Shown here: one piece after another, positions 8,697 to 22,395 of the stretch
How positions within the stretch are numbered: position 1 is the stretch's first letter
Layout of the letters: every line of letters starts with the position of its first letter
Assembly: GCA_964487275.1 (NCBI GenBank)
Contig: CAZAQE010000028.1
Coordinates: forward strand, 262-64,261
Length of the DNA stretch: 64,000 nucleotides
Direction of reading: 5' to 3'
DNA from: an uncultured Nocardioides sp.
GTDB lineage: Bacteria; Actinomycetota; Actinomycetes; Propionibacteriales; Nocardioidaceae
Made by a program: the position numbers and the translations under genes
Notes under the pieces: model-generated
What the model saw: the letters and a program-made list of their open reading frames with translations, nothing else
Told to the model about the DNA's origin: nothing
The model's database searches: none

Positions 8697-8699
8697 CGC

Positions 8700-8724
8700 C
8701 GTCAGGTGGGTCAGACCGCACTAG
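8700..8724. repeat. attL junction: shared core TGGGTCAG (8707..8714) plus element-side half-site CGCACTAG (8717..8724)
   Basis: The core is identical to 22381..22388. The half-site is the reverse complement of CTAGTGCG at 22365..22372. Confidence 0.75.
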
Positions 8725-8742
8725 AAGGCAACAACCACTACG

Positions 8743-10206
8743 ATGCTAAACGTGACCGAGGCCCTTGCGCGGGAGTACCTGCGAGTAAGTACCGACAAGA
8801 GTGGCCGCGGCGCGTCTGTCGCTCAGCAACACGACGAGAATCAGCGTGCCGCCGAGAGCCGCGGTTGGCGCCTGCTGCCGCCCTATAGCGAGCCTGAGGC
8901 GGTCTCGGCGTCGCGTTACTCCCGCAAGGCCCGTGAGGCGTTTGGCGACTTGCTCGAGGACATTGAATCAGGGTCGTTCGGGGCCGACGTCCTCGTTCTG
9001 TGGGAGGCGTCGCGGGGTTCCCGTCGCACGGGCGAGTGGGTCGACCTGATCGACGTCTGCGCCAGTCGCGACGTAAGGATTCACGTCACCTCCCACGGTC
9101 GGACCTACGACCCGACGAACCCCCGCGACCGCCGGACCCTTCTCGAGGACGCCGTTGATAGTGAGTACGAGTCCGCAAAACTCAGCGGCCGAGTCAGTCG
9201 CGCACTCGCCGCCAACGCGAGTGCTGGCCGTCCGCACGGGCAGATCCCCTACGGATACCGCCGCGTGTACGACGATCGCTCCGGTGCGCTGATCCGCCAG
9301 GAGCCCGATCCGGCAACCGCGCCGAACATTGCCGAGTTGTTCGCCCGCGTCCGTGCCGGCGACTCATTGCGCAGCATCGAGCGGGACTGGGCTGCGCGGG
9401 GCATCGTGAACAAGTCCGGTCGCCCCTTCGGTTCTGCGCACCTTCGCTCACTACTCGACGTTCGGGCCTACGCCGGTGACCGAGTGCACGGGAACCAAGT
9501 GCATGCCGGCGACTGGGAGCCCATCGTCGAGCGCGACACTTGGCAAGCCGTGCGAGCGATCCTCAGCGACCCGGCCCGGCGGACCAACCGGCCGGGCCGC
9601 GGCATCTACAAGGTGTCCATGATCGCCCGCTGCGGCGTCTGCGAAGGCCCGATGGCGGGAGACGCCAAAGTCGACGGACGCCGCCGAACCGAGCCCGTTT
9701 ACAGATGCCGCAACAACCACGTCACAGTTCCCCTCGCCAGCCTGGACCAACATGTCGAAGAAGTCGTCAGCGCGTACCTATCCCGCCCCGAAATCCGGAC
9801 GGCACTGTCAGCCGCCGCGGTGGAAAGCGGCGAGCTCCAAGCAGCACGGAACCGCGTGGCGAGACTCAAGGGCGAGTTAGACGACCTCTACGAGCGTGGC
9901 GCAAGCGGACAGATCTCGCCGGCAGGCGTGGCAGCGATGGAACCGGGCCTCCTAGGCCGCCTGAGCGGCGCTCAGGCCGACCTCGAGGCGCTACAGACCC
10001 CGAGTGCGCTCGTCGGCATCCTCGGCCGCGAGAGCGGTTCTGGAACGTCGCTGGGGGACCTGACCGTCGAGCGTCTTCGCGCAATCTACGACCTTGTCTG
10101 CACCCCTGACCTCCTCGGAGTTCCGCACGTCAACAGGTCATCCCGACGAGGGCCGAAACAACCCCCGGTTCGCGACCGAGTCGAGTGGCGACGCAGCTCG
10201 GACTGA
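8743..10206 (+). CDS. large serine recombinase (phage-type serine integrase)
   Basis: 487 aa. Resolvase catalytic N-domain (YLRVSTDKSG, VLVLWEASRGSRR), recombinase domain, zinc ribbon (CGVCEGPM...YRCRNNH) and a C-terminal coiled coil. Starts about 20 bp from the attL core. Confidence 0.95.
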   Translation: MLNVTEALAREYLRVSTDKSGRGASVAQQHDENQRAAESRGWRLLPPYSEPEAVSASRYSRKAREAFGDLLEDIESGSFGADVLVLWEASRGSRRTGEWVDLIDVCASRDVRIHVTSHGRTYDPTNPRDRRTLLEDAVDSEYESAKLSGRVSRALAANASAGRPHGQIPYGYRRVYDDRSGALIRQEPDPATAPNIAELFARVRAGDSLRSIERDWAARGIVNKSGRPFGSAHLRSLLDVRAYAGDRVHGNQVHAGDWEPIVERDTWQAVRAILSDPARRTNRPGRGIYKVSMIARCGVCEGPMAGDAKVDGRRRTEPVYRCRNNHVTVPLASLDQHVEEVVSAYLSRPEIRTALSAAAVESGELQAARNRVARLKGELDDLYERGASGQISPAGVAAMEPGLLGRLSGAQADLEALQTPSALVGILGRESGSGTSLGDLTVERLRAIYDLVCTPDLLGVPHVNRSSRRGPKQPPVRDRVEWRRSSD

Positions 10207-10600
10207 CGAGGCCAGGAGAACAAGATCCTCGCCATCCACAGCAAGATCTACTCGAAGTACAACAGCCAGCAGCCGGCCCAACCACCAACTCGATTAAGCG
10301 GCGCCAGTGGGCGTGTTCTGAGTGCGAATCGTGGCGGCGCCGCGCCTGCTAGATGCGCCTTTACGGGCACGCGTAGGTGCGCCCTGGGGACGAACGGGCC
10401 TCGTATGCAACACGCGCGTTAGTACGATTTTCCATGGAGGCGCCGGAAGATTCCGGCAAGGCTCCGCGCGCGGTTGGAAGAGCCGTCAGGACTGACCAGA
10501 CTGTCACCGCGCCGAGGGTTACAACCCGGTCGACTTGTCCCGGTCCCCTTGGAAAGACGCGACCGACCAGCCCCCACCCACAGACATTCACCTTCGCGAT

Positions 10601-10640
10601 CCGGGGGCGGTCACTTCCGCCAAGAAACTCCCGCCCCCGG
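10601..10640 (+). promoter_or_regulatory. 10-bp-stem hairpin CCGGGGGCGG-N20-CCGCCCCCGG just upstream of the first rightward gene
   Basis: Perfect inverted repeat read from the sequence. It lies within the 466-bp non-coding gap after int. Confidence 0.3.
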
Positions 10641-10671
10641 CTCGCTCCGTCCACTCCAAAGGAGCGACCTG

Positions 10672-10881
10672 ATGACAGTAGCCCCTTCTGCAACCCTCGA
10701 CCGAACTCGGCCGCGCTGGGCAGGCCCCACGGCCGCGGGCCGGTACATCGGCGTCACGGATCGCACGATCCGTAACTACATCGCGCGCGGACTCCTAACC
10801 GCCTATCACCTTCCCGGCTCAAACCATGTGCGGGTCGATCTGAACGAGATCGACGCCCTCATGGGAGCCGAGCGTGACTGA
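10672..10881 (+). CDS. excisionase-family HTH DNA-binding protein (69 aa)
   Basis: ATG at 10672 preceded by AAAGGAG. Segment YIGVTDRTIRNYIARGLLTAYHLPGSNHVRVDLNEID fits the MerR/Xis-type HTH_17 pattern. Confidence 0.7.
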   Translation: MTVAPSATLDRTRPRWAGPTAAGRYIGVTDRTIRNYIARGLLTAYHLPGSNHVRVDLNEIDALMGAERD

Positions 10882-11020
10882 GGCCGAGGCGAATCGGAGG
10901 CATGCCGCCTCAGTAGCCATGAGCGCTCCCGCTCCGTCGATGGATCAGCTCGAGCGGTTGGCGCGACTCCTGCGACCGACCGAGCCCTCCCCTGCCCTCT
11001 TGACTAGTGAGGCCGCGTGA
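10874..11020 (+). CDS. possible small ORF (48 aa)
   Basis: GTG overlaps the end of the previous gene. Its TGA overlaps the next start (GTGATG). Below the track threshold and has no recognisable domain. Confidence 0.3.
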   Translation: MTEAEANRRHAASVAMSAPAPSMDQLERLARLLRPTEPSPALLTSEAA

Positions 11021-11238
11021 TGAAGCGCCTCACTGTCGCCACTGTCACTCCCGCGCTCGACGTCTGGAACGGGTACGGCAGCCGCGACCTGCTCGAGCAG
11101 CACCGCGGCCGGCCTCCGGTCTGGTCGTCGAACCCCCGCGGCTGGGTCGCTCAGCCGGCCAACCGTGCTGACCTCATCGCCCTCGCCGAGCTCCGTGGAT
11201 TCGACGTGCGGGTCGAGGAAGCCGAGGTGGTCCGGTGA
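11020..11238 (+). CDS. hypothetical protein (72 aa)
   Basis: Track ORF 11017..11238 (GTG 11017 or ATG 11020). Stop overlaps the next start (GTGA). Confidence 0.5.
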   Translation: MKRLTVATVTPALDVWNGYGSRDLLEQHRGRPPVWSSNPRGWVAQPANRADLIALAELRGFDVRVEEAEVVR

Positions 11239-11504
11239 CCGATCCAGACCGCTTCTTCCGCGATCTGATGGCCGACTGCATGGCCGACGCGCTCGCTCAC
11301 CAGTGGCGAGAACGAGCCGACGTCATCAGAGCTGCTCGACCAAGGGAAGGCGATTACCTGGGGCAGAGCACAGTCGACGACCAGCGGGCACGGTGGCACC
11401 GCATGACCGCGATGGCCGCCGCTTGCGACGCCAAGGCCACCGTTGTCGCACGCGTGATGTTCCCGGAGATCGAGGACTTCCCCTTTTGGGAGGAGGCCGC
11501 GTGA
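11235..11504 (+). CDS. hypothetical protein (89 aa)
   Basis: Track ORF with overlapping GTGA junctions on both sides. Confidence 0.5.
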   Translation: MTDPDRFFRDLMADCMADALAHQWRERADVIRAARPREGDYLGQSTVDDQRARWHRMTAMAAACDAKATVVARVMFPEIEDFPFWEEAA

Positions 11505-12055
11505 GGGACCGCCAGAAGAAGATCGACTTCGAGCTAGACGAGTTCTCAGCCCACCGCAACGAGCACTGGAACGACAAGGCGGCCAACCCCCGGCACCCGC
11601 TCGCCCTCCGGGTCTACTTCGCCGCCCTCGGCCATCGTCGAGTCGGTGGCCACGCACCCTTCACGACGGGCGAGCTGGCCGAGTTGCTGGTGAACACCGA
11701 CGCGGTGATCCCGGACCGTCGCCGGGTGGCCGAGGCGATCCGGCAGTGCGTCCAGTGGGGCTACCTGGCGGAAGGCAGCAACGCCCTGTGTCTGGTGGTT
11801 CCGCTCGACGACGTCCAGGGCGGTCGGGGGCAGGAGTACCGCTGCCGCCGCAGCCACAGCAAGCGCGCAGCACAGGCCCATGCTGACGGCTGCGACTGCC
11901 CCCGCTGCTCACATGTGTCCGTGCCCAAACGGACACATGCCCCCGAAGTGTCCGTGCTCAACGTGGACACATTGCCCCTAGGTGTCCGCTTCCAGCCGGA
12001 CACCTCAAGCGGTGGCTCTCTCTTCTCTCTACCAACCCACGAGGAATCCGCATGA
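11501..12055 (+). CDS. hypothetical protein with a probable winged-helix DNA-binding domain (184 aa)
   Basis: Trimmed from track ORF 11165..12055 to the GTG at 11501, which is coupled to the previous stop. Segment FTTGELAELLVNTDAVIPDRRRVAEAIRQCVQWGYLAEG looks like a wHTH. C-terminus has CDCPRC. Confidence 0.5.
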   Translation: MRDRQKKIDFELDEFSAHRNEHWNDKAANPRHPLALRVYFAALGHRRVGGHAPFTTGELAELLVNTDAVIPDRRRVAEAIRQCVQWGYLAEGSNALCLVVPLDDVQGGRGQEYRCRRSHSKRAAQAHADGCDCPRCSHVSVPKRTHAPEVSVLNVDTLPLGVRFQPDTSSGGSLFSLPTHEESA

Positions 12056-12159
12056 GCGTCCAAATCCAATCCTGCGAACACCCGGCCGACGACCCGCGCT
12101 GGACCTGTTCCGCCTGCATCACCCACCTCGCCGCCGACCTCGACGGGAGTGACCGATGA
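12052..12159 (+). CDS. possible Cys-rich mini-protein (35 aa)
   Basis: ATG at 12052 overlaps the previous TGA, and its stop overlaps the next ATG. Sequence MSVQIQSCEHPADDPRWTCSACITH.... Confidence 0.35.
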   Translation: MSVQIQSCEHPADDPRWTCSACITHLAADLDGSDR

Positions 12160-12509
12160 ACGTCATCGGCGTCGAACACCTCACCCTCGAAACCCGAGAC
12201 CCCATCCAGCCGACGCTCGCCCGTTACGGCTTCGACCTCGGCCACCAGCACATCGGCCGCGACGACGTCTCCGTAGCCGTGTTCCGTGCCTCTGAATGCT
12301 TGGGGCTGGCGTCCCAGCCGCCCGCGTGGTTCGGCGTCGAGGAGCAGCCCGAGGACGCTGCTGCCTACTACTGGTGCGCCACCCCAGACAGCGACGACCG
12401 GCCTGCCGGTGCCCCGCTGCACGTCTCGACCACCGTGCCCTACCTCGAGCCCCGCTACGGCGACTCCTGGATCGCTTTCGTCGTCGAGATCCCCGAGACA
12501 GAGGAGTAG
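12156..12509 (+). CDS. hypothetical protein (117 aa)
   Basis: Track ORF, translationally coupled to the upstream mini-ORF. Confidence 0.5.
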   Translation: MNVIGVEHLTLETRDPIQPTLARYGFDLGHQHIGRDDVSVAVFRASECLGLASQPPAWFGVEEQPEDAAAYYWCATPDSDDRPAGAPLHVSTTVPYLEPRYGDSWIAFVVEIPETEE

Positions 12510-12513
12510 GCCC

Positions 12514-12831
12514 GTGCTCAGCAGCGAACAGCCTCGCCTCGCCCCCGACGACCTCGACCGCGCCAAGGATGCGTTCAACCACAGCCCCGCCTGTCAGGGC
12601 ACCGTCTGGGCCAGCTACGTCAACCGACTCGGCTCCCCGATGCTCCGATGCCGCGGCTGCGAACGTATCGTCCCCGTCGCCCGGCTCCTCGATCAGCTCA
12701 GGGAAGTCCCTCTCCGGCGCTACGTGATGCCCTGCATCCGCTGCGACCAGGACATCCGGCTCTACCGACCCAAGCCCCGCATCCCGCTGCACGAGAGCTG
12801 TGCTCGTAGGCGGCGCCAGGAGGGCCGCTGA
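12514..12831 (+). CDS. zinc-ribbon-like Cys-rich protein (105 aa)
   Basis: Trimmed from track ORF 12286..12831 to the in-frame GTG at 12514. Paired CxxC motifs (CRGC ... CIRC). Confidence 0.45.
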   Translation: MLSSEQPRLAPDDLDRAKDAFNHSPACQGTVWASYVNRLGSPMLRCRGCERIVPVARLLDQLREVPLRRYVMPCIRCDQDIRLYRPKPRIPLHESCARRRRQEGR

Positions 12832-12832
12832 G

Positions 12833-13219
12833 GTGCGATGGACGTTCCTGGCCGACGGGACGCCGTGCGTCGTCCTTGCGGCCGATGACAGCCTCTCCGA
12901 GCTTGTTGCGCTTGTCGACAGGACCGACCGCGCCACCGCCTACGCAGGCCGTCTCCCGTCGCCTGCGGCCGGACAGTTCGTGCGCCTTGGGCGGCACGTT
13001 CTCGCGGTTGCCGCACTGGTTCCGCAGCGGGAACCAACCACCGCGTCAGGGGCCTCCGGATCGGCACGATGGATCACAACGAAGGAAGCCGCAGACATCC
13101 TGCGAGTCACCGAGCGAGCCGTGCGCAAACGCATCGCCAACGGGTCACTCACGGCCCAAATGCTCGGCGGTCGCTGGCTCATAGACCTCAAGGAGATCCC
13201 CAATGCTGCAGCCGCATAA
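12833..13219 (+). CDS. protein with C-terminal excisionase-type HTH (128 aa)
   Basis: GTG at 12833 lies 9 nt after AGGAGG (the track start at 12800 is also possible). C-terminus WITTKEAADILRVTERAVRKRIANGSLTAQMLGGRWLIDLKEI. Confidence 0.6.
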   Translation: MRWTFLADGTPCVVLAADDSLSELVALVDRTDRATAYAGRLPSPAAGQFVRLGRHVLAVAALVPQREPTTASGASGSARWITTKEAADILRVTERAVRKRIANGSLTAQMLGGRWLIDLKEIPNAAAA

Positions 13220-13979
13220 CCCGCTTCTCGACACCTACCGCACCCTGAGCGGCAACGTGGTCGAGCTCGGCCGGGGCCTGTTCCCCGAGTTCACCTTTGC
13301 GAACGACGGCACCCCGGACTACATCCGCCGCGCCAAGAACGAGTGGCAGTTCATCCCGCGGCAGCTCAAGGTCATCGACGACACCCTCACGGAGCTTGGC
13401 GAGACGGTCGTCCAGATCAGTTTCGACGGCCGGCTCAGCGCACAGGCGAAGGCCGACGACCTCGCTTCGGCCACCGCCTCGATCAAGGCCAAGATCGACG
13501 CGGCGACAAGCGATGTCAGCACTCGTGCGGCGCATGTTCTCGACATCATGAAGACCGCGGCCTATCCCGCCCGCCCCGGCACCCCGGACGCGGCGCAGGA
13601 GGCCCGCATTGCAGGGATCAAGGCAGACCTACGGATGGTCTGGGACGTGCTCGAGTCCGACGAGGAGTTCGTCCCGGCGATCACCGAGTCACTCCGTCGT
13701 GCGATCGGTGACGGAGACGACCTCCAGTCCTGGCTCATCGCGTCAACGAGGTGGCCCGAGGACTACCTCCGCGCTCGAGGGGCCGAGTACCGGATCCGTC
13801 AGCTCCAGAGCGACCTCGCCTCAACTCTCGACGCCCACACGCCAGCCAACCTCGCCGAAGCACGACGCATCTACGCCGTCCTCGCAGACGGACGCCACGG
13901 ACTGCCGCTGCTCACGGTCCTGTTCGACCACCTCGACGGCATTGTCGACGACCTCGCCGCATGGCGGGGCGCCGCCTGA
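13203..13979 (+). CDS. hypothetical protein (258 aa), largest unassigned ORF of the element
   Basis: ATG lies 7 nt after AGGAG. Acidic and helical. No motif recognised. Confidence 0.55.
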   Translation: MLQPHNPLLDTYRTLSGNVVELGRGLFPEFTFANDGTPDYIRRAKNEWQFIPRQLKVIDDTLTELGETVVQISFDGRLSAQAKADDLASATASIKAKIDAATSDVSTRAAHVLDIMKTAAYPARPGTPDAAQEARIAGIKADLRMVWDVLESDEEFVPAITESLRRAIGDGDDLQSWLIASTRWPEDYLRARGAEYRIRQLQSDLASTLDAHTPANLAEARRIYAVLADGRHGLPLLTVLFDHLDGIVDDLAAWRGAA

Positions 13980-14107
13980 TGGACGGGGCATGCCGATCCT
14001 GCGAAGCGACCGAGTGCCCGACCGGCTGCGTGCGGCTCATCCAAGCCGACCGCCACGTCTGCGGGGCCAAGTGCTGCGACGACTGCACCCACACCCCTGG
14101 GGGGTGA
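13979..14107 (+). CDS. Cys-rich mini-protein (42 aa, 9 Cys)
   Basis: ATG overlaps the previous TGA (TGATG). Sequence MDGACRSCEATECPTGCVRLIQADRHVCGAKCCDDCTHTPGG. Confidence 0.4.
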   Translation: MDGACRSCEATECPTGCVRLIQADRHVCGAKCCDDCTHTPGG

Positions 14108-14203
14108 CTCCCCTCGGACCCCGAATCGAGGACTGTGGGTGAGGGCGCTCCGAGGTGCGGCACGCATTCTCGCTCGTTTTCCGATGACCATGAAGGAGGC
14201 CCT

Positions 14204-14671
14204 GTGGCCGCCGAATCAGCCCCTGAGGGCCACCCTGAGCGCCTTGCGCCCGCGGGTCTGAGTGCGCGGGCCGGCGAGTTCTGGGCGCGCATCCAGGACG
14301 AGTTTGAGCCGTCCGACGCCGAGACTGAGTTGCTGGTTGAGGTGGTGCAGACGATCACCGAGATCGACTCGTTGAAGGCCGCCCTGACTGCTGACGGTGT
14401 CTCGGTGCAGGGCTCAATGGGTCAGAAGCGCGTTCACCCGGCAGTCAATGAGATCCGACAGCACCGGATGGCATTGGCTCGGCTCCTCAAGCAGCTCGAT
14501 CTCAGCGACGAGGAGCCGGAGACGGAGGCGACCAAGGCGGCTCGCCGTGCCGCTCAGGCGCGCTGGTCTCAGTCCCGTGGCCGAGACCGGGCGCGGATTG
14601 CTGAGAACGGCCCTGCGTTACCCGAAGATCCGGAGGTAGCGGCCCTCAAGAAGTGGATGCAGGGCGCATGA
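14204..14671 (+). CDS. phage terminase small subunit, P27-family-like
   Basis: GTG at 14204 follows GAAGGAGG. Segment GLSARAGEFWARIQDEFEPSDAETELLVEVVQ...ADGVSVQGSMGQKRVHPAVNEIRQHRMALARLLKQLDL follows the P27 TerS layout. Confidence 0.6.
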   Translation: MAAESAPEGHPERLAPAGLSARAGEFWARIQDEFEPSDAETELLVEVVQTITEIDSLKAALTADGVSVQGSMGQKRVHPAVNEIRQHRMALARLLKQLDLSDEEPETEATKAARRAAQARWSQSRGRDRARIAENGPALPEDPEVAALKKWMQGA

Positions 14672-14929: not shown

Positions 14930-15196
14930 ATGACCAGCGAGATCCCACCTGAGGTGGACGAGTATCTGATCGCCCTGCCGGCCGAGGTGAAGGAGACCTT
15001 GCTCGACCTGGTAAAGATCGCAGCCGACACGGACGTCGCCGGCAAGCACTACCTCATGAGCTGGACTATCGAGGTCTCCGAGTTCGCGCTGGCCGGACTC
15101 CGGGTGCGCGAGGACGCCACGATCGCACGTCTGCTCGCGACGGTCGGGCAGCTCCTTGCCGCGATCTACCGCAACGACGCGAAGGAGGTGGCGTGA
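14930..15196 (+). CDS. hypothetical protein (88 aa), positionally like a tail assembly chaperone
   Basis: ATG at 14930 follows GAAGGAG. Stop overlaps the tape-measure start (TGATG). Confidence 0.45.
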   Translation: MTSEIPPEVDEYLIALPAEVKETLLDLVKIAADTDVAGKHYLMSWTIEVSEFALAGLRVREDATIARLLATVGQLLAAIYRNDAKEVA

Positions 15197-18006
15197 TGGC
15201 TGTTCGTCGCGAGCGGGTCATTCTCGACCTCCAGGACGATTTCAGTTCGGGCATGGTTCGGGCTGCTGGTGCGACGGCGATGCTTCGTCGGGAGCTGCGT
15301 GACCTCGATGGGATGTCGGTCCGGATCACGCAGACGTTCAACGACAACACTCGTGGCGTCGATCAGTTCTCGCGGTCGTTGGATCAGTCGGGGCGGTCGA
15401 TCGACCGTTATTCGGGGCGCCTGGCGGCGTTGGCGCAGGCGGGTCTCGTCTTCGGTCCGGGCGCTATTCCGGTCACCGCGGTCGCTACCGCTGGTGTCGC
15501 GGGCCTTGCGTCTCAGCTTGGTTTCGCGGCGATCGGCATGGGGTCGCTGGTGGTCGCGACTCGTGGCGTGGGTGACGCCCTCAAGGCGCTGAATGAGGCC
15601 GCTCTGGAGCCCACTGCGGACAACATCGAGAAGGCGCGCGTCGCGATGGCCGAGCTCGGGCCCGAGGCGCAGCAGTTCGTTCTCCGCTTCCAGGAGCTCC
15701 GCCCGGTTCTCGGTGACCTCAGGGACGCTGCTGCCGCTGGCTGGTTCCCTGGTCTCACTGAAGCGCTCGACCATTTCGAGCTCGTGGCGCCCCGCGTCGC
15801 GTCCCTCTTTGAGGCACTGGGCCGCGCAGGAGGCCAGCTCGTGGCCGAGGGTGCTGAGGCGCTGGCGGGTGGCGAGTGGGCAGAGTTCTTGTCGTTCGTC
15901 GAGCGCGAGGGCCCTGAGTCGCTCGAGCAGCTCGGTCGTTCAGTGGGCAATGTCGTACACGGGCTGGCCGAGCTCTGGATGGCGTTCGCCCCTCTCAATG
16001 ACGACTTCTCGACGTGGCTACTCAACGCCAGCAGGGACTTCGACGCCTGGGCCGCAGGGCTCGCGCAGACGCAAGGGTTCGAGGACTTCATCGAGTACGT
16101 TCGCCGCGTCGGTCCGCAGGTCGGCCAGACGCTCGGCGCCATCGCGGAATCGGTCGTGTCCATCGTGGAGGCTGCGTCCCCGCTCGGCGGACCTGTCCTC
16201 GAGGCGTTCGAGACCATCGCCGACCTCGTCCGGGCGATCGCGGAGTCCCCGGTGGGGCCGAAGATCTTCACGATGGCCGCCGCCTTCTTGGTCCTGAACA
16301 AGACGCTTGCGGTTACCGCCGGACTGCTGGCGCGGACGGGTTTCGTCGGTGCAGCGGGTGCGCTGCGCAACGCCGGTCCGGCGGCTGGGACTGGTGCTGG
16401 CCCCGGTGCGCCGGGTGTCCTTCCCATCGCTTCGCGAGTGACGGCGACACGTACCGCCTTCGGTCAGCTCCGGACCGACCTGACCGCACTCCGCAGCGCG
16501 ACGATGGCGCAGCGCAACGCCAGTACGTCGCTGATCGCGGCCCAGGCGCGCGTGAACACAACAATGCGGCAGTACGGCTCGACCGTCGCTAAGGCCGGCG
16601 CGGGCGCTGGTGCCTTCGCCGTTGCCACTGGCGCGATAGGCGGCGGCCTTGGGCTGCAGAACACCGCCATGCTCGGTCTGGTTGGCACGATGGCTGGCCC
16701 GTGGGGCGCTGCCGTCGGTGCGGGCATCGGGTTGACGATCGACCTCGCAAACGCGACCGGCCAGTACGCCGACGCGCAGGAGCGAGCGAACGCGGCGGTG
16801 AAGTCGAACAACGTCGAGCAGATCACTGCGGCGATCGCCGAGCAGCGCAAGATCCTCGCCGGCGCGATGGACTCCGACAAGGTCACCGGAGTTGGGGACT
16901 TCTTCTCCGACGTCGGCCGCGGCCTGACCGGTGGCGGTGGCGCAGACGTGAAGGCTCGCGCCAAGAAGCAGATCGCCGAGCTCGAGGATGCTCTCCGTGG
17001 CGTGAGGAAGGAGACCCTTCTGGTCGCCCGGCAGGAGCAGATCACCCTCTGGGCCGAGGCGGTCAGCGAGGAGTTCTTAAGCCTGGGCAGGGCGATCGAC
17101 AAGCCGACGCTGAGCCTCGACCGGCTCATGAAGCGGATGGAGAACCAGGGCCGCGCAGCGAGGGACATGGGGAAGAACCTCCGAGAAGCCCTCGCGAACG
17201 GTGCTGATCCTGAGGCGTTGCAGCGGCTCATCGATGAGCTGGGCCCGCAGGCAGGCCTTGTCCTCGAGCAACTGGCGAAGGGAGGCGAAGATGCCGCCGC
17301 GCGCTTCAACAGGGGGTGGGGCAGGACTCAGAACCTTCTGGCGATCCTCGAGAAGGCGATTGAGGATGTGGGCGCTGCGGTCAACCGGCTGCCGGACGGA
17401 AAGATCATCAAGATCGACGCGGACACCCGCCGCGCCGCCCGAGCGATCGACCGCATTCGCGAGGAGGCCAAGTCCGTAGCGAAGGACTGGCAGGTCCGCT
17501 TCATCGTCACTCAGACCAACCGGATCAACAAGCCGGAGATCAACGGGCCGGGGTCGCCTCAGAACTACGCCACCGGGGGCTACACGGGCTGGGGTGGCAA
17601 GTATCAGCCGGCGGGCATCGTCCACCGCGGCGAGGTTGTGATCCCGCAGGAACTGGTCGCTCGCGACCGCGACCTGCTTCGAAACCGCTACGGCCACCTT
17701 CCCGGCATGGAGCAACTGCACTCGGGAGGTATGGCGGGATACACGCAGGCCGAGGCAGTTGCTCGATCGCGCGCAGCTCTGGCGGCCTCTGCCCAAGCAG
17801 TTCGGATGTCGTCTAGTAGTGCGCCGGCAGTGAACGTCACGACCCAGCTCTCCCGCGACGACCTTGACTACCTGGCCGAACGGCTCGAGCGGGCTCGTCC
17901 GATGTACGGCGACGTGCACATGGCGCCGCACGACTACAGCGAGTTCCGCAGGCAGATGGCCGATGACCGTGCGCGGATGCAGCGCGGGGGGTTCGGGCGT
18001 CGCTGA
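15196..18006 (+). CDS. phage tail tape measure protein
   Basis: 936 aa. Long Ala/Gly-rich helical protein with internal Gly-rich hydrophobic segments. The C-terminal motif YATGGYTGWGGKYQPAGIVHRGEVVIPQ is common in siphovirus tape measures. RBS GAAGGAGG lies 7 nt upstream. Confidence 0.8.
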   Translation: MAVRRERVILDLQDDFSSGMVRAAGATAMLRRELRDLDGMSVRITQTFNDNTRGVDQFSRSLDQSGRSIDRYSGRLAALAQAGLVFGPGAIPVTAVATAGVAGLASQLGFAAIGMGSLVVATRGVGDALKALNEAALEPTADNIEKARVAMAELGPEAQQFVLRFQELRPVLGDLRDAAAAGWFPGLTEALDHFELVAPRVASLFEALGRAGGQLVAEGAEALAGGEWAEFLSFVEREGPESLEQLGRSVGNVVHGLAELWMAFAPLNDDFSTWLLNASRDFDAWAAGLAQTQGFEDFIEYVRRVGPQVGQTLGAIAESVVSIVEAASPLGGPVLEAFETIADLVRAIAESPVGPKIFTMAAAFLVLNKTLAVTAGLLARTGFVGAAGALRNAGPAAGTGAGPGAPGVLPIASRVTATRTAFGQLRTDLTALRSATMAQRNASTSLIAAQARVNTTMRQYGSTVAKAGAGAGAFAVATGAIGGGLGLQNTAMLGLVGTMAGPWGAAVGAGIGLTIDLANATGQYADAQERANAAVKSNNVEQITAAIAEQRKILAGAMDSDKVTGVGDFFSDVGRGLTGGGGADVKARAKKQIAELEDALRGVRKETLLVARQEQITLWAEAVSEEFLSLGRAIDKPTLSLDRLMKRMENQGRAARDMGKNLREALANGADPEALQRLIDELGPQAGLVLEQLAKGGEDAAARFNRGWGRTQNLLAILEKAIEDVGAAVNRLPDGKIIKIDADTRRAARAIDRIREEAKSVAKDWQVRFIVTQTNRINKPEINGPGSPQNYATGGYTGWGGKYQPAGIVHRGEVVIPQELVARDRDLLRNRYGHLPGMEQLHSGGMAGYTQAEAVARSRAALAASAQAVRMSSSSAPAVNVTTQLSRDDLDYLAERLERARPMYGDVHMAPHDYSEFRRQMADDRARMQRGGFGRR

Positions 18007-18142: not shown

Positions 18143-18183
18143 CACCCATCCCTCTCCTCGAGCGTTGCGCTGAGGGATGGGTG
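18143..18183 (+). terminator. 12-bp-stem hairpin downstream of the tape-measure gene
   Basis: CACCCATCCCTC-N17-GAGGGATGGGTG. No U-tract. Confidence 0.35.
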
Positions 18184-18325
18184 CGCACAACGCCGCGAAG
18201 GCGCATAGCGCCGTCTGCCAGGCGGTCCGATCGTGGCGCTGATCGCTCAGCCGCCAGGGGTTCGTGCCACCCGCGACGGCGGGAAGTGGAAGTTCGCGCG
18301 TGGGATCACTGGCTCAAACTTCGTG

Positions 18326-18706
18326 ATGAACGACTTCGCAACCCTCGAAGCCCGGCTGGGCGCGCGGGTTCTCGAAGTGGTTAAGGCGGAGTTGTTTTTC
18401 AAGATGCGGCAAGCCGAGTTCGGGCGGCTCGCTTACGGGCGCGGACCCGAGTTTGACGTAGAGCAGATGGCCGCCGCCCCTGACGTGCTGGAGCTTCGCT
18501 TGTCCGATCGAAGCGGCGACGACGAGAACCTCCTGCACATGCGGTTCTTCTTTTCGGAGCCACTCGATCTTCCCGGTTCACTGGTCGGCCTCGGCCTGCT
18601 CTGGAAGCGACCGGGTGGGATCGATCAGGAGATGCAGACCCAGACGGCCCTGCGTGCCTCGCTTCGGCTGCAGGAGTACACGCAACGAGAGGACTACGGA
18701 TTGTGA
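18326..18706 (+). CDS. RelE/HigB-like (Gp49/DUF891-type) toxin candidate (126 aa)
   Basis: Track ORF 18233..18706; the ATG at 18326 is preferred. Segment VLELRLSDRSGDDENLLHMRFFFSEP...LVGLGLLWKRPGG...Q..A resembles the ELR...YR..YF...KK pattern of Gp49-like toxins. An XRE gene follows. Confidence 0.45.
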   Translation: MNDFATLEARLGARVLEVVKAELFFKMRQAEFGRLAYGRGPEFDVEQMAAAPDVLELRLSDRSGDDENLLHMRFFFSEPLDLPGSLVGLGLLWKRPGGIDQEMQTQTALRASLRLQEYTQREDYGL

Positions 18707-18713
18707 GATTCCC

Positions 18714-18729
18714 GTCAACCGACGTTGAC
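18714..18729 (+). promoter_or_regulatory. palindrome GTCAAC-CGAC-GTTGAC in an A/T-richer spacer upstream of the XRE gene; candidate operator
   Basis: Perfect 6-bp inverted repeat. A second palindrome TCATATGA lies at 18751..18758. AGGAGG is at 18761. Confidence 0.3.
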
Positions 18730-18772
18730 CTGTTGGCTATGATCAATAAGTCATATGACAAGGAGGTGTGAC

Positions 18773-19162
18773 ATGGAGCTAGAGGAGCTTCTCGGGATCG
18801 ATCTGCGAAACCCGCTGCAGATGCGGGCTAAGCGGATGGTGGAGGCCGACGAGAACTTTCTTGACGAGCTTGTCCGCCTGCGAAAGGCGAAGGGCCTGTC
18901 TCAAGAGGTCGTCGCCGACAGGATGGAAATCTCCCAGAGCGCGGTCGCGCGCATCGAGTCTGGAGAGCGCGATCCTCGTCTTTCGACCCTTCGGCGCTAT
19001 GCGATGGCGGTCGGCGCCGTCTACTCCCACACTGTCGACGATGACGAGCCGCGGATCCTGAAGACTCCCATCGGGGGCGAGCATCGCTCGATGGAAGACC
19101 CTTGGCCCGCAGTCGAGCGGCCGAAGATTCACCGAGGCAAGGTGCCGAGCGCAGGTGCCTGA
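18773..19162 (+). CDS. XRE-family HTH transcriptional regulator / antitoxin candidate (129 aa)
   Basis: ATG at 18773 lies 6 nt after AGGAGG. HTH_3 motif LRKAKGLSQEVVADRMEISQSAVARIESGERDPRLSTLRRYAMAVG. Confidence 0.8.
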   Translation: MELEELLGIDLRNPLQMRAKRMVEADENFLDELVRLRKAKGLSQEVVADRMEISQSAVARIESGERDPRLSTLRRYAMAVGAVYSHTVDDDEPRILKTPIGGEHRSMEDPWPAVERPKIHRGKVPSAGA

Positions 19163-19634
19163 TCCGCGCTTTGGAGAAGATTGGCCCGATGCGTTCATCG
19201 GTGGATACGCGATCAGCCGACTACTCCGCCGTTCGGACCACGAGAACGACGAGCCCGGCATGGCCTGGAAGATCTATCCGGCCATCTTCGAGTTCGACGG
19301 GGACGATCCGGCCAACCGGCCGACCTTGGCCATCGTCGGGGACTTCACGCTGTGGGCTGGCTCGGAGTGGGCCGGCGTCCGAGCGCATGCCAACCTCTTC
19401 GTCAGGGATGTCGAGCCACTGACTGACGATGAGTGGCAGGCTGCCAATGAACTCACCGTGCAGCATGTCGATTGGTTGGAGCGCGGCCTGTACGACTTCG
19501 TCGCTCAGGCCATGCGCGCGATGATGGCGAGCGGGTCAGGCCTCACTGTTCCCAGGAGCACGCCAGACTATGAACTCCTTCTCGTGGACATAGACGAGGT
19601 CGTGAACGACAGCGGCTTCCGGGATGCCGACTAG
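19155..19634 (+). CDS. hypothetical protein (159 aa)
   Basis: GTG start overlaps the XRE gene by 8 nt. No recognisable domain. Confidence 0.5.
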   Translation: MPDPRFGEDWPDAFIGGYAISRLLRRSDHENDEPGMAWKIYPAIFEFDGDDPANRPTLAIVGDFTLWAGSEWAGVRAHANLFVRDVEPLTDDEWQAANELTVQHVDWLERGLYDFVAQAMRAMMASGSGLTVPRSTPDYELLLVDIDEVVNDSGFRDAD

Positions 19635-19640
19635 GCTGGC

Positions 19641-19952
19641 ATGACCGGGCGAGGCGGCTACAAGCAGACCGACGGAATCGTCGTCGCCCGCCTCTGCGGC
19701 ACGTCACGTCAACTAGCAACCGGGCACGCCGAGGATGACGAAGCGATCGCCGAACTCCAGGCAATCACGACCCGCGTCGAGCTGTTGAGCCAGGCTGCCG
19801 GCGTCTGCATGGCCCAGCACCGTTACAGCGCCGCGGTCCATCCGTTCGCAAGTCGGTCGGCGGACCTGTTGTTCGCTGCTGGCGCTGACCTCGAGTTGGC
19901 CGAGAAGCAGGCTGCACTGTCGCTCGCCTCATTGAATGGCAACCGCCCCTGA
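19641..19952 (+). CDS. hypothetical protein (103 aa)
   Basis: Starts 6 nt after the previous stop. A hairpin (GCCCCTCGG ... CCGAGGGGC, about 19957..19997) follows. Confidence 0.45.
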   Translation: MTGRGGYKQTDGIVVARLCGTSRQLATGHAEDDEAIAELQAITTRVELLSQAAGVCMAQHRYSAAVHPFASRSADLLFAAGADLELAEKQAALSLASLNGNRP

Positions 19953-20098
19953 GTGCCCCTCGGACGCTTGGTTGTCTCTCCGCCCACCCGAGGGGCTGTC
20001 CTTTCTCGGGGACGCGACGACGCTACGACGAGCAGCGACCCAAGAGGAACAGTTCGGATCCTCTGATTTGCGTCGGAGTCCGGGCCTAGGGTGCCGGC

Positions 20099-20551
20099 AT
20101 GAAGTCCTCACGTGCTCTGGTGGCGGCCCTGGTTGCGATCGGGTTGCTGGCTGTGGGGCTTGCTGCCGCCTTGGGGATCGTCCTCGCAAACGATGATTCG
20201 GACGACTCGCCCAGCAGGGCTAGCGACGTGTCGTCTGAGACGTCGGAGTCTCCGATGTCGCCTCTCCGGCCTGCGTGGCTCGCGTGCCGCGACTTTGACG
20301 AGGACGGCACGGTGGCGCTGACGGACGAAGACCAGTCGATCGTCATCAGCACGGGTCAGTACGGATCGGGTGTCGCGGCGGACTGCATCCTCGACCAACT
20401 TGAGGTCTCGGAGGCCATCCGGTCACAGGTGGACCACACCACGGCGATGATGGGCGTCCAGACTGCGGATCAGGATGGCCTCGCCTACCAGTGGTCGTAT
20501 CACCCCGACAACGGCCTGAATATGACCATCACGGTGGACGGATCCGAGTAG
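20099..20551 (+). CDS. membrane-anchored/secreted hypothetical protein (150 aa)
   Basis: N-terminal signal/anchor MKSSRALVAALVAIGLLAVGLAAALGIVLA, an acidic Ser-rich linker, then a globular domain with 2 Cys. Confidence 0.6.
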   Translation: MKSSRALVAALVAIGLLAVGLAAALGIVLANDDSDDSPSRASDVSSETSESPMSPLRPAWLACRDFDEDGTVALTDEDQSIVISTGQYGSGVAADCILDQLEVSEAIRSQVDHTTAMMGVQTADQDGLAYQWSYHPDNGLNMTITVDGSE

Positions 20552-20566
20552 CCGGACCCCAGGACG

Positions 20567-20791
20567 CTAGTTGTTTGGTCGCCGCCGAGCGCTCGCCGCC
20601 CTAGCAGTTCGCGCAGGCGTGACCGCCTGCTTCGCGATGATCTCCTCGACCATCCCGTCGGTGAACCGCCACACCGACCGCTTCGGCTTCACGCACGGCC
20701 AGCCGCCACCAGGGCGACACTTCATACGGACGTCGTCGACCGTGATTCCCAGAAGGTCGGTCAACTCGACGTCGGTGAGCAGCCTGTTCAT
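20567..20791 (-). CDS. excisionase/AlpA-type HTH protein (74 aa)
   Basis: Track ORF trimmed to the ATG at 20791 (MNRLLTDVELTDLLGITVDDV...VWRFTDGMVEEII). Paralogue of the adjacent gene. Confidence 0.6.
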   Translation of the reverse strand: MNRLLTDVELTDLLGITVDDVRMKCRPGGGWPCVKPKRSVWRFTDGMVEEIIAKQAVTPARTARAASARRRPNN

Positions 20792-20805
20792 CTCTTCAAG
20801 CCCTC

Positions 20806-21036
20806 TCAATCACGGCGACGTTCCCGAGCGCCGGGAAACATCGGCTTCACCTCTGGCGCCGGCGTGACTAGGTGGCGCGCCAGGATCTCCCGGACCTGCT
20901 CTTCGGTAAACCGCACCGTCTTGCCCAGCCGGTAATGAGGCCACCCCTCGCTCTTGCGGAGCTGAACGACGGTCGAGAGCGGCATGTTTAGCCGCTCTGC
21001 GAGGTCGGCGTGCGTGAGCAGGCGATTGCTGTCCAT
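20806..21036 (-). CDS. excisionase/AlpA-type HTH protein (76 aa)
   Basis: ATG at 21036 (the track start at 21042 is TTG). Sequence MDSNRLLTHADLAERLNMPLSTVVQLRKSEGWPHYRLGKTVRFTEEQVREIL. Confidence 0.65.
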   Translation of the reverse strand: MDSNRLLTHADLAERLNMPLSTVVQLRKSEGWPHYRLGKTVRFTEEQVREILARHLVTPAPEVKPMFPGARERRRD

Positions 21037-21056
21037 GGCCAACAGAGAACAGCATC

Positions 21057-21266
21057 GTGCTCATGCAGAACTACCTGACCCCCGAGCAAGCCGCCGAACT
21101 CTTGCCCTTCGGCAATCCGGATTGGATCCGTGCCCAGCTCCGGGCTGGTCGTCTGCGTGGCTCGAAGGTCGGTGGCCGCTGGCTGGTGGAGCCGGCCGCT
21201 CTCGAGGAGATGGTCTCGGCCGGCTCCAATCAGCAGGTCAGACGTCGGCGGCGCCGTACTACTTGA
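21057..21266 (+). CDS. excisionase-type HTH protein (69 aa), divergent from 20806..21036
   Basis: YLTPEQAAELLPFGNPDWIRAQLRAGRLRGSKVGGRWLVEPAALEEMV with an Arg-rich tail. Start is GTG 21057 or ATG 21063. Confidence 0.6.
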   Translation: MLMQNYLTPEQAAELLPFGNPDWIRAQLRAGRLRGSKVGGRWLVEPAALEEMVSAGSNQQVRRRRRRTT

Positions 21267-21360
21267 CTGTCGCGAGGATGCGGGCGATCTCCTCAACCTG
21301 CTGGTCGGTGATCGGCGGCAGACTGGCGACGAACGCAGCCGCCCTCTCTTCGGGAGTCAT
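21259..21360 (-). CDS. possible mini-protein (33 aa)
   Basis: ATG at 21360 within track ORF 21259..21471. Sequence MTPEERAAAFVASLPPITDQQVEEIARILATVK. Confidence 0.3.
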   Translation of the reverse strand: MTPEERAAAFVASLPPITDQQVEEIARILATVK

Positions 21361-21392
21361 GCTCGGATCCTTGTCTCTCGTCCGCGGCTCAG

Positions 21393-21761
21393 TCACGGGA
21401 CGACATTGTCGTTGAGGCGCATGGCCTCGGCTGCTTCGGTCGCCTCCCTGACGTTCGCATCGAGAGCACACGCCATCGCGATCGACAGCTTCTCAATGAA
21501 CAGCGAGGCAGCGGCGCCACTGGGGAACGAGTGCTGCCCGCCCTCCAGGTAGACCCAGGGTTCCCACGGCTGCTCACCCCACGCGATCGCGCTGACTTCC
21601 CAGACGTTTGGGAACGCGGTGAACTCGTCGGGACGAGCCTTGCGAGACTGGTTGCCCCACTTCACCTCATGCAACACGAGGCCGTTCTCACCGGGAGTGT
21701 GCGAGCCCTGGCGATAGGCGGTGTCGCACGGGAAGCGATAACACCGGACGGCGGCGCTCAT
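21393..21761 (-). CDS. hypothetical protein (122 aa)
   Basis: Track ORF. ATG overlaps the stop of the upstream gene (ATGA). Confidence 0.5.
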   Translation of the reverse strand: MSAAVRCYRFPCDTAYRQGSHTPGENGLVLHEVKWGNQSRKARPDEFTAFPNVWEVSAIAWGEQPWEPWVYLEGGQHSFPSGAAASLFIEKLSIAMACALDANVREATEAAEAMRLNDNVVP

Positions 21762-22018
21762 CGGACGACCCTCAGGTTGGCGCGACCGGCCGGCCGGTCG
21801 TCGTCGCGGACATACCCGTAGGCCCCCGCCTCGCGCCCGAGCTCGAATGCCCGTCGGACCTGACGGCTGTAGGTCTTGTTGAAGTGCACCACGAGGGGGC
21901 CGACAACGAATCCCGCTCCGGAGCTGTGGGGCAGGGCCTCACGAACGCACCAGCGCACGCGGGTCAGGATGGGGGTAGCGCTTTCGAGCGCAGCAGTAGT
22001 ACCGTTTAGTTCAGACAT
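21758..22018 (-). CDS. hypothetical protein (86 aa)
   Basis: Track ORF, first sizeable gene of the leftward module. Confidence 0.5.
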   Translation of the reverse strand: MSELNGTTAALESATPILTRVRWCVREALPHSSGAGFVVGPLVVHFNKTYSRQVRRAFELGREAGAYGYVRDDDRPAGRANLRVVR

Positions 22019-22042
22019 TGTGTTCCCTTTCGGAACGCCCGG

Positions 22043-22111
22043 CCCTGGTGGAGTTGCAGCTCCCCAGGGCCTGCTTGTTTCTCTGGGTCGAGAGGGCGGT
22101 TGCAGCCGCCC
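22043..22111 (-). ncRNA. two hairpins sharing the same hexaloop (CUGCAA on the coding minus strand); possible regulatory RNA structures
   Basis: 22043..22069: CCCTGG(T)GGAG-TTGCAG-CTCC-CCAGGG. 22094..22111: GGGCGG-TTGCAG-CCGCCC. Both lie in the 5' untranslated gap upstream of 21758..22018. Confidence 0.3.
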
Positions 22112-22211
22112 CTGAATCGCTGGTTCCTACGCCGTGCCGGTGATCGGCAGGCGGGACCGGGTCCTAAGTGGTCTAGACGGGTTCATCACCTCCTCTCGTC
22201 GTTGAGCCGCA

Positions 22212-22340
22212 TCAGCCGAGGAAGATGCGGTGGCCGACCTGCTCCATCAGGGTCGGTGGCTGCTGGGACGCGAGCAGCAGGCAGGTGGCCGTGATGGCGG
22301 CGAAGATGGTGCACAGCACCAGCGCGGGGATGAGTCGCAC
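22212..22340 (-). CDS. possible hydrophobic mini-protein (42 aa) at the element's right edge
   Basis: GTG at 22340 lies 8 nt after GGAGG. Sequence VRLIPALVLCTIFAAITATCLLLASQQPPTLMEQVGHRIFLG. Below the track threshold. Confidence 0.35.
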   Translation of the reverse strand: MRLIPALVLCTIFAAITATCLLLASQQPPTLMEQVGHRIFLG

Positions 22341-22364
22341 GGTAGGGACCTCCAGAGATAGCAA

Positions 22365-22395
22365 CTAGTGCGCTTCATCATGGGTCAGGCCGGTC
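22365..22395. repeat. attR junction: element-side half-site CTAGTGCG (22365..22372) plus shared core TGGGTCAG (22381..22388)
   Basis: The core is identical to 8707..8714 and in the same comEC codon phase. Confidence 0.75.

Follow-up and report, generated by a model that had tools for sequence, protein, structure and literature searches.

The stretch of DNA analysed here (hereafter the window, at its full length of 64,000 nt) belongs to contig CAZAQE010000028.1 from an uncultured Nocardioides sp., and carries at positions 8707..22388 a 13,682-bp integrative element, a candidate phage satellite, that interrupts the host gene comEC. An earlier reading of the letters alone (the first-pass annotation) had placed the element at the same coordinates, and the 8-bp direct repeat TGGGTCAG found at both ends bears this out. 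With 66.3% GC the element lies below its two host flanks (73.5% and 72.4%), and a GC profile along the DNA drops from the 72-75% of the host to 62-69% between approximately 9 and 22 kb. Gene calls resting on third-position GC (GC3) and ribosome-binding sites give 26 genes with a coding density of 88% and 12 overlapping start/stop junctions; the tight packing described earlier stands, with a somewhat lower count than the proposed 30 or so open reading frames (ORFs). The host itself is a Nocardioides near N. aromaticivorans, the GlgE proteins of the two falling in the same 90%-identity cluster.

The element splits comEC, which encodes the DNA-uptake channel, within a conserved GLTH/LTAVSG motif, leaving on the minus strand a 3' part with the Competence and MBL domains (7107..8706) and a 5' part with DUF4131 (22389..23123); holA lies downstream of comEC in the left flank. 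When 8715..22388 is deleted in silico, a single comEC ORF of 780 aa results, reading …TTGLTH·LTAVSGTNL… across the junction, in which the Competence domain is unbroken and covers positions 1-266 of the 270 in the profile (179.6 bits vs 139 bits for the C-terminal part alone). The same uninterrupted gene, again of exactly 780 aa, is found in nature on a contig of a close relative (L023:12025-14367), which has the same gene order, is 99.6-99.8% identical in DNA sequence to window positions 538..8718 and 22381..30000, and lacks the element. The attB reconstructed from the window agrees with this empty site at 60/60 bases. Given an empty site in a near-identical genome, the element is a presence/absence polymorphism, and the insertion is recent and precise; the earlier view of the att sites as intact and of the element as something other than a decayed remnant is borne out on both counts. 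Precise excision would restore comEC, and ComEC function should be lost on insertion and regained on excision, so that the occupied/empty pair could act as a genetic switch. A second contig, L002 from the Logan assemblies, shares with the window a stretch of 3,491 nt, attL included, at 100% identity; it is probably from the same strain, and for that reason we exclude it as independent evidence. The attB of phiJoe, a site occupied by variable mobile elements in Streptomyces, was considered as the insertion site. It was rejected, as the phiJoe paper places that attB within a radical-SAM gene (SCO2606-like) and not in comEC.

The two copies of TGGGTCAG form the attL core (8707..8714) and the attR core (22381..22388), a crossover region that they share with the empty attB of L023. 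Joining the ends of the element yields an attP with two 8-bp arms in perfect inversion, CTAGTGCG-N18-CGCACTAG, and with the TG that opens the shared core at its centre; the left arm CTAGTGCG derives from 22365..22372 and the right arm CGCACTAG, inverted relative to it, from 8717..8724. Such dyad-symmetric arms are the geometry expected for the attP of a serine integrase. The junction predicted on the excised element contains AACTAGTGCGCTTCATCATGGGTCAGACCGCACTAGAAGG, and the predicted healed attB contains GCCGTCAGGTGGGTCAGGCCGGTCGTCC. Just inside attL is a gene for a 487-aa large serine integrase (8743..10206, plus strand), recognised as a serine integrase in the first-pass annotation and here found to combine catalytic, recombinase and zinc-ribbon domains (Pfam Resolvase, 2.7e-21; Recombinase, 2e-11; Zn_ribbon_recom); among Rhodococcus and Gordonia phages it has serine-integrase relatives at 33-36% identity. 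The protein domains, the short att cores, the dyad in attP and the identity of attB with the empty site are together what is expected of the large-serine-integrase class. The next gene encodes a small helix-turn-helix (HTH) protein of 69 aa (10672..10881, plus strand) with a start supported by a ribosome-binding site and a weak HTH_17/MerR match (22.4 bits in Pfam HTH_17, under the cutoff of 27; phrog_66, excisionase/regulator, 1.2e-6), and is a candidate regulator or excision factor.

This is not the sole element of its kind. Through the genomic contexts of homologs of two of its genes, o258 and the tail tape measure protein (TMP) gene, we identified about ten related elements of 8-14 kb (L003-L010, L016 and L017) in Nocardioides, Mumia, Luteimicrobium and Propionicimonas, carried by uncultured or Logan-assembled actinomycete genomes, two Luteimicrobium species, Mumia xiangluensis, a Propionicimonas metagenome-assembled genome and a Nocardioides sp. 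Comparison of their proteins defines a syntenic core of o73, o89, o184, o105, HTH128, o258, o42, the small terminase subunit (TerS), o88 and TMP. The integrase is of the serine type in the window element, L004 and L005, and of the tyrosine type in L003, L016 and L017; the insertion site and the right-hand cargo are different in every related element. Recurrence as a mobile family is thus visible in the syntenic core, in the varied integrases and sites, and in the empty site of a 99.7%-identical genome. The block is neither fixed nor decaying in relatives, which keep an intact core elsewhere, and on this comparison the elements are best read as a modular mobile-element family under selection, not as independent decay products.

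The longest gene of the element (15196..18006, plus strand) encodes a 936-aa protein that had been called a tape measure, and we agree with this assignment: it matches eleven PHROGs, eight of them annotated as tape measure (best E=1.8e-13), with no match in Pfam. It belongs to a large family of at least 293 relatives, most of them from Nocardioides and Pimelobacter. Among its close homologs, three are from complete siphovirus prophages, L012 (N. aromaticivorans CP022295), L013 (Pimelobacter simplex) and L015, each of which has an ORF of the size of a large terminase subunit (TerL), a tail tube gene, two ORFs at the position of tail chaperones, TMP, distal tail genes and an M15 lysin; a major capsid protein (MCP) was identified in all three, and an SPP1-type portal in L012 and L015. 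The window TMP is 56-57% identical to that of L012 (56% over residues 2-900). With the TMP of L015, which is 937 aa long, it is collinear, at an identity of 58% by tblastn (residues 2-936) and of 62% when aligned columns are counted. When the proteins of the element were compared with the prophages by tblastn, nothing but TMP matched (a tblastx comparison of the element with the prophage loci gave thousands of spurious high-GC hits and was discarded in favour of this search). In a matrix of pairwise identities the window TMP is nearest to L015 (62%) and L012 (57%), then to that of the small element L016 (55%), and the TMP of L006 is nearest to that of prophage L013; the TMPs of elements and prophages are interleaved, with no grouping by element type, which suggests that exchange of TMPs with local phages is likely. 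The GC content of the element is also close to that of the prophage loci (67%), unlike that of the host (72-73%). On the strength of these related TMPs, the complete prophages are candidate helpers.

Directly upstream of TMP is o88 (14930..15196, plus strand), the stop codon of which overlaps the TMP start (TGATG). Homologs of o88 precede TMP immediately in L016 (46% identity) and L006 (32%), so the o88-TMP pair is present in the window element and both of these relatives; TMP is also found in L005/L007, L008 and L009. No tblastn match to o88 exists in prophages L012, L013 and L015, and it appears to be a partner specific to the TMPs of these elements, probably with a chaperone-like role. Farther upstream, the P27-like TerS proposed by the first-pass annotation is confirmed at 14204..14671 (plus strand; phrog_1496, E=3.5e-14), with homologs in L003, L004, L005/L007, L006 and L008. 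Its best matches in the phage database are three 11-kb 'Mycolicibacterium phages' of the class of Extracellular Prophage-Inducing Particles (EPIPs). Just upstream of the TerS ribosome-binding site we observe a short T-containing motif, CGCTCGTTTTCC, in the window (~14165..14185) and in L008 (~10900-10935), which recurs as GTCCGTTTTTC in L003 (~11130-11160) and stands out against the local GC content; possible roles are those of an operator, a late-promoter element or a stretch of a packaging site. We identified neither a cos nor a pac site in the element, and the putative cos region upstream of TerS is mostly occupied by a small coding gene, o42.

This small gene closes a conserved unit of three. 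HTH128 (12833..13219, plus strand) encodes a 128-aa protein with a C-terminal HTH_17 domain (Pfam, 35.5 bits) that is 78% identical to its homologs in L003 and L004, and lies directly upstream of o258 in 9/10 related loci, L003-L010 among them; the remaining locus, L011, has only a weak, split match to o258. The product of o258 (13203..13979, plus strand) is an orphan and serves as the marker gene of the family. It is the largest ORF apart from the integrase and TMP genes, as had been noted before, the other unassigned ORFs being at most 184 aa. An AlphaFold2 (AF2) model built from a family alignment of 15 sequences is of good quality (pLDDT 88.6, pTM 0.76), with 12 helices and no beta strands, and a Foldseek search with it gave nothing significant in PDB (best E=0.14, TM <=0.33) or BFVD (best E=0.14). 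Searched with a profile, 1.84 billion representative proteins yielded 187 clusters, nearly all of standalone proteins of 245-290 aa. Among 45 diverse members there were 0 PHROG matches and, in Pfam, only two isolated single-member matches near the E-value limit; no tblastn match was found in 50,697 phage or 72,556 plasmid records. An all-alpha protein with no significant match in PDB or BFVD is not an HK97 capsid fold, and o258 was rejected as a capsid candidate on these grounds, together with its lack of profile similarity to the MCP or scaffold of EPIPs. One might speculate about a scaffold-like role. Translationally coupled to o258, such that its ATG shares one base with the o258 stop codon, is o42 (13979..14107, plus strand; GC3 0.88), missing from the earlier gene list and encoding the 42-aa Cys-rich peptide MDGACRSCEATECPTGCVRLIQADRHVCGAKCCDDCTHTPGG. 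It is kept directly after o258 in L003 (68%, E=2e-18) and L006 (38%, E=3e-5), and is possibly a zinc-ribbon partner of o258 or of TerS.

The first half of the core is an early block of small plus-strand genes, beginning with o73 (11017..11238; homologs in L003, L016 and L008 at 54%, 44% and 28% identity) and o89 (11235..11504; 49% identity to its homolog in L003). They are followed by o184 (11501..12055), with homologs in L003, L004, L016 and L017 and a family of 16 members in Nocardioides that shares a conserved N-terminal domain and an invariant Cys/His cluster. It is presumably the winged-helix protein of the first-pass annotation, a description for which we find no basis: there is no match in Pfam, PHROGs or PDB (where a sequence profile search was empty), and the AF2 model is poor (pLDDT 49). 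Within the DNA of its 3' end, three dyad-symmetric sites of the form GTGTCCG-N8/9-CGGACAC are spaced by 34 bp (11914..12003); the 'VSV…VSV' motifs in the tail of o184 are these dyad repeats in translation. Repeats of the same type occur at the same place in L016 (7078-7169), L004 (9066-9157) and L003 (8694-8790), with a spacing of ~33 bp and a site sequence that differs for each element. Such differences in repeats and o184 across the four elements are as expected if an initiator and its iterons co-varied, and by analogy with lambda O/ori the dyads may be candidate origin iterons embedded in the gene of their own initiator, making o184 a candidate replication initiator. A 35-aa ORF with ATGA overlaps at both ends (12052..12159, plus strand; also called as a gene on L002) and a CxxH…CxxC motif joins o184 to o117 (12156..12509, plus strand; GC3 0.87), a gene with no family match in Pfam, PHROGs, PADLOC, NCBIfam or PDB sequences. 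The block is completed by o105 (12514..12831, plus strand), a conserved Cys-rich protein with a homolog in L003 (69% identity) and only weak zinc-finger hints.

Two relatives depart from this plan in instructive ways. The ~8-kb element L016 (4285-13069), with a tyrosine integrase, has o73, o184, o88 and TMP (54-55%) in common with the window element. Where the latter has TerS and o258, L016 instead encodes an HNH endonuclease of 89 aa and an unrelated protein of 266 aa; in cos packaging, P27-type terminases are known to have HNH proteins as partners. The smaller L017 (7110-14246, in Nocardioides sp. JBETCN010000004) has a tyrosine integrase, an HTH_17 gene, small ORFs and an o184 homolog, and no TMP was called in it; its late gene is an HK97-type MCP of 409 aa (Phage_capsid, E=9e-58), followed by an Abi_2 abortive-infection gene. 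This suggests that different lineages of the wider family may parasitise different parts of the virion. We also observed in L004 (5495-7420) that the serine integrase gene abuts a 183-aa T2SSE fragment (Tad/CpaF-type ATPase) at the end of a tad pilus operon, which suggests that this element may split a host gene as well. In L006 (4751-5647), a 298-aa gene overlapping the end of the TMP gene matches phrog_13702 ('terminase large subunit') weakly, with E=3e-6 and over the N-terminal 144 residues only; the protein is too short for a TerL and has no Pfam match.

The right-hand part of the window element is variable cargo and regulation. Downstream of TMP is o157 (18233..18706, plus strand; start codon uncertain), then the gene for a 135-aa XRE-family regulator (18755..19162, plus strand; Pfam HTH_3, 3e-13; phrog_1373, 6.4e-16), a candidate repressor or antitoxin. 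The two had been described as a HigB-like/XRE pair; the XRE half is well founded, while o157 has no match in Pfam, PHROGs, PADLOC, NCBIfam or PDB sequences that would support 'HigB-like'. Three further cargo genes, o159, o103 (phrog_19199) and o150 (19155..20551, plus strand), have no homologs in the related elements compared; a hydrophobic N-terminal segment seen by eye in o150 suggests a signal or membrane anchor. Next come three HTH_17-type genes, 20567..20809 and 20806..21042 on the minus strand and 21057..21266 on the plus strand, as candidate excisionase (Xis), or recombination directionality factor, and regulators. Homologs occupy the attR-proximal end of L003, L005 and L006. Five HTH_17 proteins had been counted in the element; Pfam HTH_17 is above cutoff in three (12833..13219, 20806..21042 and 21057..21266), 10672..10881 falls short of the threshold, and 20567..20809 qualifies only by 41% identity to its paralog 20806..21042. 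These two adjacent minus-strand genes are tandem paralogs, and DNA repeat families in the region (D2-D4, 20567..21316) reach as far as 21286-21316, where, downstream of the divergent HTH_17 gene, a 31-nt segment occurs for the third time. Near attR are o122 and o86 (21393..22018, minus strand), with no family match in Pfam, PHROGs, PADLOC, NCBIfam or PDB sequence searches, and finally, just inside attR, an ORF for a small hydrophobic peptide of ~42-50 aa (22212..22364, minus strand; GC3 0.90, host-like codon usage). It begins directly after the stop codon that truncates the 5' part of comEC and might be a read-on product of transcription from the comEC promoter. Scans of the element found no Rfam family and no sigma-70 consensus promoter, and terminator-like matches were no commoner than chance. 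Far from the element, a second stretch of lower GC (0.68-0.69) lies at 58000..61000, the start of which is overlapped by the GlgE ORF (57020..59008) with a host-like GC3 of 0.96.

Taken as a whole, the element is integrative and small, and carries in TerS and TMP two determinants that touch the packaging and assembly of a helper. Remote-homology and fold searches of its unassigned ORFs found no capsid, portal or TerL, in agreement with the first-pass annotation, and as all ORFs other than the integrase and TMP genes are of 258 aa or less, portal and TerL are excluded by size. A tail tube gene is likewise lacking, no ORF matches an endolysin or holin family, and MCP, portal, protease, connectors and TerL are all missing from its gene set; among the relatives only the distant L017 has an MCP. 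Of the two descriptions offered before, phage satellite or mini-prophage, the former is favoured and the latter is excluded. We consider it probable, at about 0.6, that the element, a recent acquisition, belongs to a family of phage satellites of Actinomycetota that has not been described before, its members being small (8-14 kb), modular and dependent on a helper. Among the points in favour of this reading is the precedent of the EPIPs, which have been physically isolated and carry TerS, a serine integrase and TMP.

In the mechanism that we propose, induction of or infection by a compatible siphovirus would lead the integrase to excise the element, helped by an Xis-like HTH_17 protein as directionality factor. 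Replication would then proceed from the iteron-like dyads in o184, with o184 as initiator, and the TerS of the element would steer the large terminase of the helper to satellite DNA for packaging in capsids made by the helper. The TMP of the element, produced together with the coupled o88, would be built into tails made from the tube and tip proteins of the helper, so that satellite particles would carry a tail core specified by the satellite; as a side effect, this TMP may interfere with assembly of the helper's own tails. The HTH128-o258-o42 unit beside TerS might act in packaging or morphogenesis, a step to which we attach low confidence.

A bolder version may be entertained as a possibility, though we would sooner bet against it than for it. 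Here the element would be the first to be recognised from a widespread satellite family of actinobacteria, one that hijacks the capsids of helpers and supplies its own tail core, in the form of a TMP repeatedly exchanged with local siphoviruses for compatibility and loaded by o88 in place of the phage chaperones; o258, with its new fold, and the zinc-ribbon-like peptide would serve in packaging or capsid redirection, as parts of a modular toolkit in which L017 (with a capsid gene) and L016 (with an HNH gene) share the early/replication module and individual lineages parasitise different virion parts.

Several observations weigh against the satellite reading. There is no prophage within the 64-kb window, and hence no helper is identified there; nor did probing the IMG/VR viral contigs with o258, o184 and TerS detect a member of the family. 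The TerS matches the P27-family models, Pfam Terminase_4 and TIGR01558, only below their curated cutoffs, and shows no relation to the small ORF that precedes TerL in prophage L015, which leaves TerS-TerL compatibility with an L015-type candidate helper unsupported. No ORF has a primase or helicase family match in Pfam, PHROGs, NCBIfam or PDB sequences, and with so poor a model for o184 the replication module is conjecture. More generally, we infer helper dependence, induction, replication, packaging and the roles of o88, o258, o42 and o184 from gene content and context.

The same observations can be read in other ways, of which the most serious, while unlikely, is that the element is an island for phage interference or defence, mobile by its integrase and not packaged, in which TMP and TerS act as dominant-negative decoys that cripple tail assembly and DNA packaging in infecting siphoviruses, and the right-hand genes are further defence cargo. 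There are known cases of satellites and prophages that block tail assembly (Tai systems), and a TMP so close to those of resident-type prophages, an Abi_2 gene in the relative L017 and the lack of family members among IMG/VR viral contigs would all fit. However, a full-length, collinear TMP with a conserved and coupled o88 looks functional and not poisonous, the cargo genes match no defence model in PADLOC (where the only hits are generic HTH hits and a borderline one for o258, E=0.0095), and spread across genera with swapped integrases needs a transfer route, for which nothing but phage particles is encoded. Interference and satellite transfer are in any case not mutually exclusive and can coexist. 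That the element is instead mainly a reversible switch for comEC, a case of 'active lysogeny' like the Listeria comK prophage or Bacillus skin and SPbeta, with incidental phage genes, strikes us as improbable: relatives at other sites with other integrases imply that comEC is not a property of the family, and nothing points to regulated excision, even though the site in a conserved comEC motif is precise, excision would restore the 780-aa ORF, and serine recombinases drive such gene switches in Bacillus. This idea is about what follows from the insertion site, and the satellite reading can hold alongside it.

Two further origins seem less credible still. Identity of 56-62% to the TMPs of full prophages of the same host group, and a GC content equal to theirs, might be taken to mean that the element is a deletion remnant of a Nocardioides siphovirus prophage that retained integrase, TerS and TMP, yet TMP is all that it has in common with the prophages, with no protein-level trace of the neighbouring structural genes, and o258, HTH128 and o88 are in none of the sequenced phages or prophage loci examined. 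Nor would a remnant be expected to recur as the same intact, syntenic gene set in at least ten elements from several genera, with varied integrases and sites, to have inserted recently and precisely beside an empty site in a 99.7%-identical genome, or to keep 88% coding density and 12 overlapping gene junctions; this explanation is already largely refuted. Least probable of all is a conjugative or mobilisable integrative element (of the actinomycete integrative and conjugative element, AICE, or integrative mobilisable element, IME, type) that acquired its phage genes by accident. Actinomycetes commonly harbour small integrative elements in which an integrase and Xis-like HTH proteins accompany a small replication module, and o184 with its iterons would suit a plasmid-like replicon. 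Against this, no ORF has a family match to a relaxase, an FtsK/TraB-like translocase, Nudix/Pif or Spd in Pfam, PHROGs, NCBIfam or PDB sequences, o258 is absent from all 72,556 plasmid records, and conservation of TerS and TMP across the family is left unexplained by chance capture.

Satellites are best known from Proteobacteria and Firmicutes; in Actinomycetota, to our knowledge, few satellite isolates have been described, and only one very recent class, the EPIPs, has a TMP. If the satellite reading is true, carriage of TMP is no quirk of a single Mycolicibacterium system and recurs in an unrelated, sequence-defined family, for which o258, HTH128 and o88 would be marker genes in the search for more members. 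Why a satellite should need its own tail ruler would become testable, as the TMP homologs give concrete helper candidates and predicted tail lengths. With the ~0.15 nm per TMP residue known from lambda-like phages, a tail of some 140 nm would be expected from the 936-aa TMP, and one of about 160-170 nm from a helper TMP of 1056-1118 aa. The comEC insertion, in the lysogen behind SRR8893624, and the natural empty-site strain, the source of SRR31358315, form an isogenic pair for experiments, and the new serine-integrase attP/attB pair may be useful as a genetic tool.

Among known systems, the phage-inducible chromosomal islands (PICIs), including the Staphylococcus aureus pathogenicity islands (SaPIs), are similar in general design, with a size of ~13 kb, an integrase at one end, Xis/AlpA-like HTH regulators, a TerS of their own, accessory cargo at the far end, site-specific att and no set of virion structural genes. 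The left end of the window element is also PICI-like in having the integrase, here a serine one, followed by the HTH_17-like gene 10672..10881. The analogy drawn in the first-pass annotation from TerS holds in that respect, and fails for the primase/replicase (pri-rep) module, of which we find none, the only candidate initiator being o184 with its iteron-like dyads. The element also has no identifiable Stl-type master repressor divergent from the integrase and no cpm, ppi or rpp homologs, and differs from PICIs in its TMP, which they do not carry, in its serine and not tyrosine integrase, and in the phylum of its host. Comparison with phiRv1, which had been suggested as well, does not fit. The small size, large serine integrase, small Xis-like directionality factor and insertion within chromosomal sequence are indeed shared with phiRv1/phiRv2, but phiRv1 encodes capsid and prohead-protease homologs and a primase and has no TMP, while capsid, prohead protease and primase are not present here. 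With SPbeta (spsM) and skin (sigK) of B. subtilis and the comK prophage of Listeria the element shares a precise insertion within an ORF that excision restores; the latter are prophages, full or defective, each bound to a single host gene and to developmental regulation, whereas here the site varies by member.

Another group comprises the satellites of Actinomycetota that form their own capsids, namely MulchRoom and MiniFlayer (PMC10690885) and Ando (PMC13587820), which are capsid-encoding Streptomyces satellites that borrow tails, and with them the capsid-forming PICIs (cf-PICIs). Like the proposed satellite in the window, these are small siphovirus satellites in actinomycetes that supply part of the virion and have a GC content that follows the helper and not the host. 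The division of labour is reversed, however, in that they encode capsid, portal and packaging genes, whereas the window element has TMP and TerS and no capsid, and searches of the phage database found no sequence similarity between them.

The nearest functional analogue is the EPIP class, 11-kb satellites of Mycolicibacterium aichiense (e.g. JSForest2, OR387116) that encode TerS, a head-to-tail adaptor, a stopper, a serine integrase, an HTH protein, a scaffold, an 'MCP' and TMP (bioRxiv 10.64898/2025.12.02.691453). EPIPs are free infectious particles that induce a resident helper prophage, HerbertWM, on which they depend, and have small heads and long, variable tails; the authors of this December 2025 preprint stress that TMPs are otherwise unknown in satellites (bioRxiv 10.64898/2025.12.02.691453). 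With that description, the earlier remark that it would be unusual for a satellite to bring its own tape measure has become dated. Both are small actinobacterial elements with a serine integrase, HTH proteins, TerS and their own TMP, both lack portal, large terminase, tail tube and lysis genes, and their TerS proteins are homologous (36% identity, E about 1e-12). No other gene is homologous: the integrase similarity is generic (22% identity), the TMPs have no specific match, and the adaptor, stopper, scaffold and 'MCP' are without counterpart in the window element, o258 being unrelated to the latter two. EPIPs were isolated as particles, whereas the window element is known only as an integrated sequence, and it has its own HTH128-o258-o42 and o88-TMP units and a host in the family Nocardioidaceae. 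With homology confined to TerS, we reject membership of the EPIP class and keep it as a functional analogue; most likely, the novelty here lies in a satellite family of Nocardioidaceae and related actinomycetes that carries TMP and is distinct in sequence.

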